13,453 nt of DNA from a virus. Its lineage: Duplodnaviria; Heunggongvirae; Uroviricota; Caudoviricetes. Positions within the stretch are counted from its first letter, which is position 1. Every line of letters starts with the position of its first letter. The notes under the pieces were generated by a model. That model did no database searches and was not told where the DNA came from. It was given only the letters and a program-made list of their open reading frames with translations. The stretch spans positions 1 through 13,453 of the IMG/VR virus record IMGVR_UViG_2651869691_000006, one strand, 5' to 3'. The position numbers and the translations under genes are program-made. Below, piece by piece: positions 10,323 to 13,020 of this stretch.

Positions 10323-11054
10323 TTAGGGGGCATGAAAGATGACTTTATAACCTTGCTCACCCCAGTGTTGTAAAAGTTCGTTTTGCCTTCTCGTTGGTGC
10401 CATGCCTGTCCAGACAATCAATGTTTGCGTTGGGAACAGTTCCGGGCGCGGCGATTCAATGGGATCAGCAAGAACAGAAATGTGCCATCCTGACAATGAT
10501 AAACGCCATGCTTCCAGCCACAATCGTGCTCTCTCTTCAACATTCCACGCCATCAGAATGGCCTCTTTACCGGGCTTACGGCGCATTTCGAAAAGTGAGG
10601 CCGCTGCGTATTCAATTAATGTGCCGTCAAACATACTGCTCATAATGCGGGAGGTGTTGTGATCAAGCACGAGACGCTGGCGAACAGGAAGGTAAACATG
10701 ATTAATCAATTGATCTACTGGGTACTCTCGACCCAGTGAAATAATTCGCGCGCGTAGTTTGGCTGGATTAGCCATACGAAGAATTGACATCATCTCTTCT
10801 TGCAGGCGGCTCCAGTCATCTTGCGTATCCTGGCTGGTAGTTTCCAGTAATGCTTTCACTTTGCCTACAGGAACGCCATTACTTATCCAACGCTTGATCT
10901 CTTCGATGCGTTGTATGTCTTCTTCATCAAAGAGTCGGTGTCCGCCTTCACTGCGCTGTGGTTTTAACAAACCGTAGCGGCGTTGCCAGGCCCGGAGAGT
11001 GACAGGATTAATCCCGCAACGTTCAGCAACATCACCAATGCTGTAATAAGCCAC
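10323..11054 (-). CDS. bluR: MerR-family transcriptional repressor BluR (YcgE)
   Basis: 243-aa ORF; N-terminal MerR helix-turn-helix ([42 protein letters not shown]); synteny with bluF and ycgZ. Confidence 0.85.
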
Positions 11055-11103
11055 AATTCCTCCTTGCGGTCATAAATCTCCGTCGCCTCTACACGACCCA
11101 ATA

Positions 11104-11141
11104 ATACTTTGTACAATATACGCTGAAATTGTACAAAGTAT
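11104..11141. promoter_or_regulatory. Perfect 14-bp inverted repeat with 10-bp spacer between bluF and bluR (candidate operator or RNA hairpin)
   Basis: ATACTTTGTACAAT-atacgctgaa-ATTGTACAAAGTAT; each arm contains the self-complementary octamer TTGTACAA; lies 50-87 bp upstream of the bluR start. Confidence 0.35.
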
Positions 11142-11258
11142 AAATAAGATTTCAGCTAAATTGGATGAAACATTATTTTTAATGTGGATTAAATTAAAAC
11201 ATAACGCATTCATTTTCGCGATGATTTCCAGAAATCATGCGAAATAATGTGCTGAAAA

Positions 11259-12470
11259 TTATTTTTTCTCCGGCCACGCAACTGAAGGGATACCATTCAA
11301 TTTAGCTTTGGAAAACAGATCTCCCTGAAACATCTCAATTCCTGCAGATTCAAGCCACATCCACTCTTCTGGTGTTGCCACGCCCATAGCAGAGACTTGA
11401 ATTTCAAGTGATGTACAGCATTTCATGATCGCCTGAATAATTGCCTGCCGTGGTCCGCTTTTATGAACATTGGTAATCAATTCCTGACTGATTTTAATTC
11501 TGTCAGGCTGGAAGCGTGACAGGAGTAACAAACCAGCAAAACCTGCGCCAAAATGATCAATTGCTACACTGATACCGGCAGCCTTTAGCGATTTAACCGC
11601 TTCGGCAAACTCATCAAACCGAGATATGACTTCACTTTCAGTAAATTCAACGATGATTTGTTCAGGCACCAGAGCATTGGCCTTTATTTCATCAAGTAAA
11701 AAAGAGACTGCGTCAGGCTCGTTAACCAGGGTCATAGGTAATAGATTGATTGAAATCATTTTATCACCGAGCTTAAGTGCGTGTGCCATCGCAAATGCAA
11801 GCGCCTTACTTTTGAGATCCGCTGTGTAGATTTCCTCGTCTTTACGCTGCCCAACCGCTATAGCTGACGGGCTGTCTTCATTTTTTTGCACAATGGCTTC
11901 AAAAGCGATTATCCGCCGCGATAAAGGGTCGACAATAGGATGAAAGGCAAAGTGGTCGTTTATATTTGATGAAAGGGTACAAGAATCAAGTTCTTTATCA
12001 GATCCGTCAGCGATAAAAAGCCAGGAGTCTTCAGCAGGAATCTCGAAATAGGTTGATTGTTCAGTTGCAAGGACAAAAGTACGAAAAAATTGTAGCGCTC
12101 TGTCATCATAAGTTAGCTGAAATTTTGATGTGCCTTTGTCGAATACGGCCTGTAAAACGTCATCTCGCTCGTGCAGGCGTAAATCAAATAATTCCATTCC
12201 TGCTTTGCCAAAACGGCGAGCAGGCGCGTAATCGCACAACAGTTCAACAATATTATAGTGCCGTGGATCCTGGCATATGGCCCGATATATCATTTGAACC
12301 TGTTCTTCCGGACCTTCCAGAAGCTGGAAAAAATGAGAACCATTAAACAGTAAGATCCCTGTTACGTCAGACCGCATGTTCCTGCGATTTGCTATCGAAA
12401 CCATTTCTTCGATTTTTTTGACAGGTTCGTCGTCACGTATATGGCTACGATAAATAAGGGTGGTAAGCAT
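11259..12470 (-). CDS. bluF: Blue-light sensor BluF (YcgF), BLUF-EAL protein
   Basis: Start chosen at the internal ATG giving MLTTLIYRSHIRDDEP... (403 aa) rather than the TTG at 12548 used by the ORF track; N-terminal BLUF domain, C-terminal EAL-like domain; divergent from ycgZ. Confidence 0.85.
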   Translation of the reverse strand: MLTTLIYRSHIRDDEPVKKIEEMVSIANRRNMRSDVTGILLFNGSHFFQLLEGPEEQVQMIYRAICQDPRHYNIVELLCDYAPARRFGKAGMELFDLRLHERDDVLQAVFDKGTSKFQLTYDDRALQFFRTFVLATEQSTYFEIPAEDSWLFIADGSDKELDSCTLSSNINDHFAFHPIVDPLSRRIIAFEAIVQKNEDSPSAIAVGQRKDEEIYTADLKSKALAFAMAHALKLGDKMISINLLPMTLVNEPDAVSFLLDEIKANALVPEQIIVEFTESEVISRFDEFAEAVKSLKAAGISVAIDHFGAGFAGLLLLSRFQPDRIKISQELITNVHKSGPRQAIIQAIMKCCTSLEIQVSAMGVATPEEWMWLESAGIEMFQGDLFSKAKLNGIPSVAWPEKK

Positions 12471-12548
12471 TAACAATCCAGGGTAATAGGCGAGGCGAGA
12501 GTAAGACGGTAACAGACATATCTTCTTGTGTCTTTCTTTTAATACCAA

Positions 12549-12783
12549 AACATAACCGTTTCTTTACATTGATAAAAAGTGGAAAAGGTTGAAGACGGTT
12601 TGGCGAAAAAACTTGTATAGGTTGTCATTTAAATGATGCAATATGTTTTATCATAATGCATTGTTTTATATGAATTAGCACTAATTGAGAAAAATTAATT
12701 TATCATTCTGTACACATATTTCGTACAAGTTTGCTATTGTTACCTCACTTAACATTGATTAACATTTTTAACAGAGGCGTAGC
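12549..12783. promoter_or_regulatory. Divergent bluF / ycgZ-ymgA promoter region (expected BluR-controlled ycgZ promoter)
   Basis: 235-bp AT-rich intergenic region between divergently oriented bluF and ycgZ; regulatory role inferred from established knowledge of the BluR/BluF-ycgZ-ymgA-ariR circuit, with no specific operator identified here. Confidence 0.5.
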
Positions 12784-13020
12784 ATGCATCAAAATTCAGT
12801 GACTTCAGATTCTGCAGGAGCAATCACTCGTTACTTTGCAAAAGCTAAGTTGCCTACTCAGCAGGAAACTCTCGGGGAAATTGTGACTGAGATTTTGAAA
12901 GATGGACGTAATCTGAGTCGAAAGTCGCTTTGTGCCAAACTTCTTTGCCGACTGGAACAAGCGACAGGGGAAGAGGAACAGAAACATTATAATGCACTAA
13001 TTGGGTTGCTTTTTGAATAA
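12784..13020 (+). CDS. ycgZ: Small regulatory protein YcgZ (biofilm/acid-resistance connector)
   Basis: 78-aa ORF MHQNSVTSDSAGAITRYFAKAKL...; size and synteny. Confidence 0.85.
   Translation: MHQNSVTSDSAGAITRYFAKAKLPTQQETLGEIVTEILKDGRNLSRKSLCAKLLCRLEQATGEEEQKHYNALIGLLFE

Follow-up and report, generated by a model that had tools for sequence, protein, structure and literature searches.

A candidate BluR/MlrA-type operator in the core promoter of bluR

Operators read by BluR, MlrA and their relatives

The pair of BluF and BluR is the model of how blue light and cold are translated into biofilm decisions in a non-phototrophic enterobacterium. In its published form, the circuit is an open loop, in which BluF removes BluR and ycgZ-ymgABC is derepressed. 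The repressor BluR (YcgE) carries a MerR-type winged helix-turn-helix domain, and its BLUF-EAL anti-repressor, BluF (YcgF), takes it off DNA in blue light and cold (Tschowri et al. 2012, PMC3509220). BluR is toxic when overproduced, it shares 49% identity with its paralogue MlrA, and bluF and bluR are separate sigma-70 transcription units (PMC3509220). At the ycgZ promoter, the DNase I footprint of BluR contains TGTAC...GTACA, and mutations in this motif abolish both binding and repression (PMC3509220). This known operator, TGTACAcatatttcGTACA, lies at 12709..12727 on the plus strand of the window, by which we mean the whole stretch of 13,453 nucleotides analyzed here, and its boxes have a phasing of 13 bp. 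Almost all of the orthologous loci that were examined (L005-L028) have the arrangement TGTACA-N7-(T/C)GTACA with this phasing, which is 14 bp in a single genus. Most genera bar E. coli also have an extra TTGTACA about 95 bp from the ycgZ operator on the bluF side, which perhaps controls bluF.

Two other groups of MerR-type regulators offer points of comparison. The classical sites of MerR, CueR and SoxR are dyads of about 18-22 bp centred in a spacer of 19-20 bp, and these proteins act by distorting the DNA. CarH, a B12-dependent photoreceptor repressor, occupies as an oligomer a series of short repeated boxes that overlie a promoter. Its boxes are direct repeats with 11-bp phasing, and the repeat contains TnnACA, which is satisfied by TGTACA. 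We know of no B12 dependence for BluR.

MlrA is produced in stationary phase under RpoS control. Its site at csgD is given as AAAGTTGTACA(12N)TGCACAATTTT (PMC3509220), and the SELEX consensus of Ogasawara et al. (2010) is AAAATTGTACA(12N)TGTACAATTTT as quoted in PMC9662190. BluR binds the N12 site of csgD only weakly (PMC3509220). In Salmonella, MlrA and MlrB repress orf319 through an MlrA-like operator that overlaps its -10 and -35 elements (bioRxiv 10.1101/2021.03.09.434593). Operators for BluR and MlrA, and autoregulation by repressors, are known kinds of elements, and the instance upstream of bluR that is described below appears undescribed. In full-text searches of the literature, we found no account of the palindrome or of bluR autoregulation and no binding or expression experiment on it, with the reservation that an earlier test may be contained in the 2009 ycgE::lacZ work. 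In PPTP-seq, a genome-wide CRISPRi screen able to detect autoregulation, the bluR guide was lost.

The inverted repeat and the bluR promoter

In the window, bluR occupies 10323..11054 on the minus strand (GTG start, 243 aa) and bluF occupies 11259..12470, also on the minus strand, with ycgZ at 12784 divergent from bluF. The longest open reading frame for bluF starts at a TTG at 12548 and extends 78 nt (12471-12548) beyond the annotated ATG at 12470. This longer frame is an artefact of ORF calling, because translation from the ATG at 12470 yields MLTTLIYRSH, the N-terminus known for BluF. The window comes from E. coli: 501 nt taken around the repeat are 100% identical to several E. coli chromosomes, in which the flanks are annotated as bluR and bluF.

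The inverted repeat spans 11104..11141. Its arms, 11104-11117 (ATACTTTGTACAAT) and 11128-11141 (ATTGTACAAAGTAT), are 14 nt long, 100% complementary and separated by a gap of 10 nt according to the repeat finder, and the first-pass annotation, which had reported a perfect 14-nt repeat in the bluF/bluR intergenic region, was confirmed in coordinates, sequence and gene context. It had also placed the repeat downstream of bluF and upstream of bluR, correctly so, because both genes are on the minus strand and the repeat lies 50-87 nt before the start codon of bluR. Its remark that the palindrome is unusually long likewise stands: among the perfect inverted repeats of the window that have loops of 3-20 nt, it is the longest, and in 60 shuffles preserving dinucleotides the longest repeat averaged 8.9 nt and reached 13 nt at most, so that none of the 60 attained 14 nt. 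Both arms contain TTGTACAA with the core TGTACA. It is the pairing of this core that is rare, with one occurrence of TGTACA-N8..20-TGTACA in the window against 0.01 expected; lone TTGTACAA-like words are not enriched in the window. The palindrome occurs at a median of one place per E. coli genome, and because it is single-copy, a dispersed repeat of the REP or MITE type, which would have many copies per genome, was rejected.

The 10 nt at the centre of the repeat (11118..11127) are not palindromic and are polymorphic at 11125, which is G in the window and A in K-12, Shigella and O121. The common E. coli allele is one base off the window, and in the three examples checked (K-12, Shigella and O121) this base falls in the repeat centre. 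From -138 to -55 relative to the bluR start codon, K-12 and the window are identical bar one base of the repeat centre. In one clinical strain, E. coli 2022CK-00450 (L031), an IS1 element is inserted in the centre at the equivalent of window position 11122; the promoter-distal arm, bluF, the ymg operon and the DNA up to ycgH are absent from this strain, and its bluR keeps a half site.

The position of the repeat can be read against a mapped promoter. In K-12, primer extension placed the 5' end of bluR 54 nt upstream of the start codon (PMC3509220). This corresponds to 11108 on the minus strand, an A two bases past the promoter-proximal TGTACA, so that the transcription start falls within the repeat and the repeat covers -33 to +5, where occupancy could regulate transcription. 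A consensus scan of the minus strand found TTTATA-18-TATATT at the correct distance from the published start, with the predicted -35 hexamer TTTATA at 11139..11144 and the predicted -10 hexamer TATATT at 11115..11120 (-12..-7), separated by a spacer of 18 bp; the -35 assignment is our reading of the scan. The promoter-distal box 1 (TGTACA, minus strand, 11130..11135) is at -27..-22, within the spacer between -35 and -10. The promoter-proximal box 2 (TGTACA, minus strand, 11110..11115) is at -7..-2, between the -10 hexamer and +1, and abuts both. The predicted -10 hexamer thus sits between the two boxes. In K-12-type E. coli and Shigella, there is a third exact TGTACA in the 5'UTR of bluR, 16 nt past box 2, and at this position (11088..11093, minus strand, +16..+21) the strain of the window has TGTAGA.

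How does this arrangement compare with the proven operators? It shares with the ycgZ operator the locus, two copies of TGTACA/GTACA and the overlap with a core promoter, and at ycgZ the repression is relieved by BluF. It differs in that the ycgZ boxes are 13 bp apart from start to start (N7), whereas those of bluR are 20 bp apart, and 17-20 bp apart in orthologues. Furthermore, the ycgZ boxes lie over the -35 element and spacer of a sigma-S promoter, whereas the bluR boxes lie over the spacer and the -10/+1 region of a sigma-70 promoter. Binding is proven for the ycgZ operator and predicted for the bluR palindrome. In E. coli, CGTATA follows box 1 at a distance of 13 nt and differs by one mismatch from the CGTACA of ycgZ; a hidden partner box with 13-bp phasing within the repeat was nevertheless set aside, as nothing comparable was seen in the few orthologues checked by eye.

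The resemblance to the MlrA box of csgD is in the dyad of TTGTACA half-sites and in an AT-rich spacer of similar length, and several of the bluR orthologue sites have exactly N12. The csgD box differs in its AAAA/TTTT outer flanks, where the E. coli bluR site has N14 with ATACT/AGTAT flanks, and in its location about 100 bp upstream of the -35 element, from which MlrA activates, whereas the bluR site lies over the core promoter. The orf319 operator is closer in position, being an MlrA-type dyad over -10 and -35, beside a gene for a regulator of the MlrA family and acting in repression. However, its target is not the gene of the regulator itself but the one downstream, and it is confined to Salmonella. 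With the classical MerR, CueR and SoxR systems, bluR has in common a regulator with a MerR-type winged helix-turn-helix and a palindrome within the promoter. In contrast to those sites, the bluR promoter has a spacer of about 18 bp, with the dyad centred at -14.5 and 20 bp between the centres of the half-sites. An operator of the classical MerR-type activator was rejected for the position of the dyad centre and for the predicted spacer of 18 bp, not 19-20 bp.

Taken as a possible member of the BluR/MlrA operator class, the bluR palindrome has two TGTACA (GTACA) copies in a dyad arrangement and is conserved beside family genes in other genomes. Its E. coli spacing of N14 is equal neither to that of the proven BluR site at ycgZ (N7-N8) nor to that of MlrA (N12). 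This mismatch lowers the case for membership but does not exclude it, because the family evidently tolerates several spacings, with N11-N14 among the orthologues and N12 in some of them.

Conservation across genera and the RNA stem reading

Orthologous bluR loci were collected with one genome per species from Shigella, several Citrobacter, Dryocola, Superficieibacter, Klebsiella, Kluyvera and Silvania. To these were added homologues from Pseudocitrobacter, another Klebsiella, a Kluyvera georgiana-like contig, Lelliottia, Scandinavium and Pectobacterium, in all of which bluF precedes the gene and ymg-type genes lie further upstream, as well as mlrA-syntenic loci of Pantoea and Erwinia, in which yohO and yehWXY-type genes follow. 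Paired exact TGTACA hexamers are found 56-89 nt before the bluR start codon in Escherichia/Shigella, Citrobacter, Klebsiella, Dryocola and Superficieibacter, and at the same position before bluR in Silvania, the Kluyvera-like locus, Scandinavium and Pectobacterium. In Pantoea and Erwinia, such pairs precede the mlrA-syntenic genes. E. coli has N14 between the boxes. The Citrobacter freundii group, C. amalonaticus, Scandinavium, Pantoea and Erwinia have N13, the spacing in Klebsiella, Pectobacterium and Dryocola is N12-N13, and Superficieibacter and Silvania have N11. In Pseudocitrobacter one of the two boxes is TATACA, and the upstream boxes of Lelliottia read TATACA-N7-TGTACA. A pair of boxes before the regulator gene is not obligatory, because TGTACA boxes were not found upstream of bluR in three Kluyvera loci (L016-L018), nor paired boxes in the upstream region of E. 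coli mlrA. The mlrA-syntenic proteins of Pantoea alhagi and Erwinia persicina are 64-66% identical to BluR, compared with about 48-49% for E. coli MlrA, and their genes keep the paired boxes that E. coli mlrA lacks; of the two paralogues, it may be E. coli MlrA that has diverged further.

When 16 upstream regions from about 10 genera were aligned with MAFFT, the two TGTACA hexamers were the sole invariant blocks, at a mean column identity of 46%, and in each case they stand some 60-85 nt ahead of a gene of the BluR/MlrA family. Conservation across related genera, which the first-pass annotation had named as one check on the palindrome, was borne out in this form: the paired hexamers are kept upstream of family genes in about 10 genera, and the surrounding sequence is variable. 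Throughout 159 kb of collected loci, 20 of the 22 pairs of the form TGTACA-N9..16-TGTACA are at the position upstream of the regulator. A reverse scan of metagenomes for TTGTACA-N11..14-TGTACAA placed 4 of 120 matches within 54-200 nt of the start of a BluR/MlrA-like gene, and most of these 120 matches must be due to chance. On one metagenome contig, Ga0308004_10033382 (L038), TTGTACA-N11-TGTACAA is located at 981-1005, about 180 nt upstream of a gene whose product is 31% identical to BluR. There are hints here that the box, and its link to the regulator's own gene, reach distant members of the family.

Could the long palindrome have arisen by chance or neutrally in an AT-rich spacer, without any function? 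Two observations would fit this idea: the perfect extension of the arms beyond about 8 nt is confined to Escherichia and Shigella, and within E. coli the entire 80-nt bluR promoter is conserved, not the arms alone. The rarity of paired hexamers, the shuffles, the placement of the pairs upstream of regulators, the invariance in the alignment and the metagenome matches all oppose it, so that the idea is scarcely credible, and the conservation among genera can be said to have largely refuted it.

The same alignment holds a second conserved element. In genera other than Escherichia and Citrobacter, columns 101-115 hold the conserved GAATnGT-TAGTTT, which lies about 17 nt past box 2 and, together with box 2 read as TTGTAC, resembles a promoter with a -35 element, a 17-bp spacer and a -10 element. 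In E. coli and Citrobacter, its place is taken by another conserved sequence, GGCGACGGAGA. Because the two groups of genera differ downstream of box 2, the bluR promoter may have shifted about 30 bp upstream in the lineage of E. coli and Citrobacter. For the other genera, the placement of the boxes relative to promoter elements is a prediction read from the conserved hexamers.

The first-pass annotation had left the repeat as either an operator or an RNA stem. As RNA, the repeat would form a stem-loop at the 3' end of the bluF transcript that terminates transcription or stabilizes the mRNA. A 14-bp stem on the minus strand has a predicted energy of -14.8 kcal/mol, with a z-score of -2.8 in an 81-nt context, and the publication of bluF and bluR as separate transcription units, together with the failure to detect a canonical terminator in the E. 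coli DNA that separates the stop codon of bluF from the repeat, would leave room for such an element. However, the stem is AU-rich with 3 G-C pairs out of 14 and has the tail UAUUGGG without a U-tract. A terminator scan returned no sites, and the minus-strand sequence after the repeat (UAUUGGGUCG) has no T-run. An intrinsic (Rho-independent) terminator was rejected since the GC-rich stem and U-tract are lacking, in agreement with the first-pass annotation, which had held that the repeat is not a classic intrinsic terminator. No Rfam match was found at E <= 1 in 10950-11350. The bluR mRNA cannot form the hairpin because its published transcript starts inside the downstream arm, and only read-through RNA from bluF could contain it. 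In several other genera, moreover, a GC-rich, terminator-like hairpin is visible by eye between bluF and the boxes.

Comparative evidence points the same way. A conserved stem would be expected to show compensatory changes. None are seen among the 12 hexamer positions, which are invariant across genera, whereas the paired length varies from 6 to 14 nt and the energy from -3.8 to -18 kcal/mol among orthologues. Hexamers that never vary while their surroundings do suggest sequence-specific recognition rather than a stem. A role as RNA stem or terminator in E. coli is unlikely, and for the repeat as a whole we regard action as RNA as remote. Of the two alternatives in the first-pass annotation, the operator, including autoregulation, stands as a prediction on the TGTACA core, the cross-genus invariance and the overlap with the core promoter, and the stem is disfavored by the start site in its arm and the lack of covariation.

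Candidate ligands and proposed negative autoregulation

We consider that the palindrome is probably an operator of the BluR/MlrA type over the core promoter of bluR, which would serve negative autoregulation relieved by BluF. The sequence of the repeat, its position relative to the published start and its conservation are observations, from which we infer the identity of the protein at the boxes and the sign of its regulation. In the proposed mechanism, two TGTACA boxes in dyad symmetry overlie the sigma-70 core promoter of bluR, and BluR, and possibly MlrA, on both boxes would exclude RNA polymerase from the -35/-10/+1 region; a block of this kind is expected because the boxes are in the spacer and between the -10 hexamer and +1. 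Occupancy by BluR would result in negative autoregulation of its gene. In blue light and cold, BluF would remove BluR, and bluR would be derepressed along with ycgZ-ymgABC because BluF removes BluR from DNA. Repression would return once new BluR has been made, which would complete a feedback loop by which the level of BluR recovers. Tight self-limitation of bluR is plausible because overproduction of BluR is toxic.

Binding of the regulator to its own promoter is favored by the fact that the boxes accompany the gene of the family wherever it is located, including the mlrA-syntenic genes of Pantoea and Erwinia. Our confidence in BluR autoregulation is not set higher because the spacing of N11-N14 resembles that of the csgD site of MlrA, which BluR binds less well. 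A weaker autoregulatory site is a common design and would be compatible with BluR binding.

The site could also be genuine with MlrA as its physiological ligand, or with MlrA and BluR competing for it, in which case MlrA would repress bluR. The spacing of the sites in E. coli and its orthologues is nearer to the N12 of the MlrA consensus than to the N7-N8 of ycgZ, the mlrA-syntenic genes of Pantoea and Erwinia have the same paired boxes upstream, and MlrA does repress through a promoter-overlapping operator in Salmonella (bioRxiv 10.1101/2021.03.09.434593). In addition, the 24-residue segment of the winged helix-turn-helix domain that reads the DNA is identical in BluR and MlrA, and near-identical across the orthologues that were compared, among which one Kluyvera sequence has a single substitution. 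A lineage whose regulator has changed residues at the DNA contact was sought as a means to separate BluR from MlrA, and the segment was the same in both; because of this identity, sequence alone cannot tell which paralogue binds. On the other side, the simplest conserved logic would have every regulator act on the gene that encodes it, an N12 site is bound by BluR in vitro, and the literature yields no SELEX or ChIP target list of MlrA that names bluR. We regard MlrA as the physiological ligand, alone or in competition with BluR, as a serious but much less likely alternative.

Regulators of the locus from unrelated families, such as RcdA, SrsR or H-NS, might occupy the boxes instead. The best site of RcdA, TTGTGTACAttTGTACACAA, contains TGTACA, and RcdA binds the neighboring bluF-ycgZ spacer (PMC3535384). 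However, it was this spacer, not the one between bluR and bluF, that was named in the RcdA SELEX (PMC3535384), and the RcdA box TTGTnnACA has no match in the window. For SrsR (YgfI), a SELEX peak has been assigned to bluR (PMC9181523), but the box variant GCAGGTTTTGC that was reported for this peak has its exact match at 11536-11546, inside bluF and some 430 nt before the start site of bluR. H-NS has been listed for an intergenic spacer of the locus (PMC3946193), but its binding would leave two invariant hexamers unexplained. Overall, occupation of the boxes by one of these regulators is improbable.

A BluR/MlrA-type operator may also be considered from the structure of the regulator. The AlphaFold2 model of BluR has a mean pLDDT of 84, and its best match among solved structures is full-length CarH (E about 1e-9), with isolated B12-binding domains also matching. 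The Pfam domains of BluR are MerR_1, MlrA_helical and MlrA_C. Because the model matches CarH best, BluR is predicted to have the architecture of CarH/LitR, not the compact coiled-coil dimer of the metal-sensing MerR proteins; the domains may be a MerR-type winged helix-turn-helix, a four-helix bundle and a Rossmann-like domain. On this model, BluR and MlrA look like relatives of CarH/LitR, and a repressor with the fold of a light receptor would now be placed under a separate BLUF light receptor. The likeness to CarH, CarA and LitR lies in the predicted fold and in the repeated short boxes over a promoter, and the anti-repressor logic of CarA and CarS parallels that of BluR and BluF (PMC3509220). 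The difference is that CarH uses direct repeats at 11 bp, whereas the bluR dyad is at 17-20 bp, and published work on LitR proteins has BluR in a class apart from LitR/CarH. If BluR binds as an oligomer in the manner of CarH, tolerance of both 13-bp and 17-20-bp phasings would be less surprising. A tentative extension, possible though doubtful, is that BluR and MlrA are CarH-like proteins reading TGTACA at two phasings, each conserved on its own, 13 bp in ycgZ and 17-20 bp in their own promoters and csgD, and that the bluR palindrome is an ancestral MlrA-type autoregulatory site, kept after the duplication of mlrA and bluR and readable by both. If so, the bluR promoter would be a point of cross-talk between the c-di-GMP/curli and the blue-light/Rcs circuits.

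If the predicted operator is real, BluR on its own promoter would close the loop of a circuit hitherto described as open, and the signal that frees the ymg operon would also raise the synthesis of BluR. Such autoregulation would give adaptation, limit a toxic excess of BluR and set the ratio of BluR to BluF. If it is MlrA that reads the bluR site, the curli and Rcs branches would be joined at the level of transcription. By its conservation, the operator prediction should apply in many Enterobacterales.
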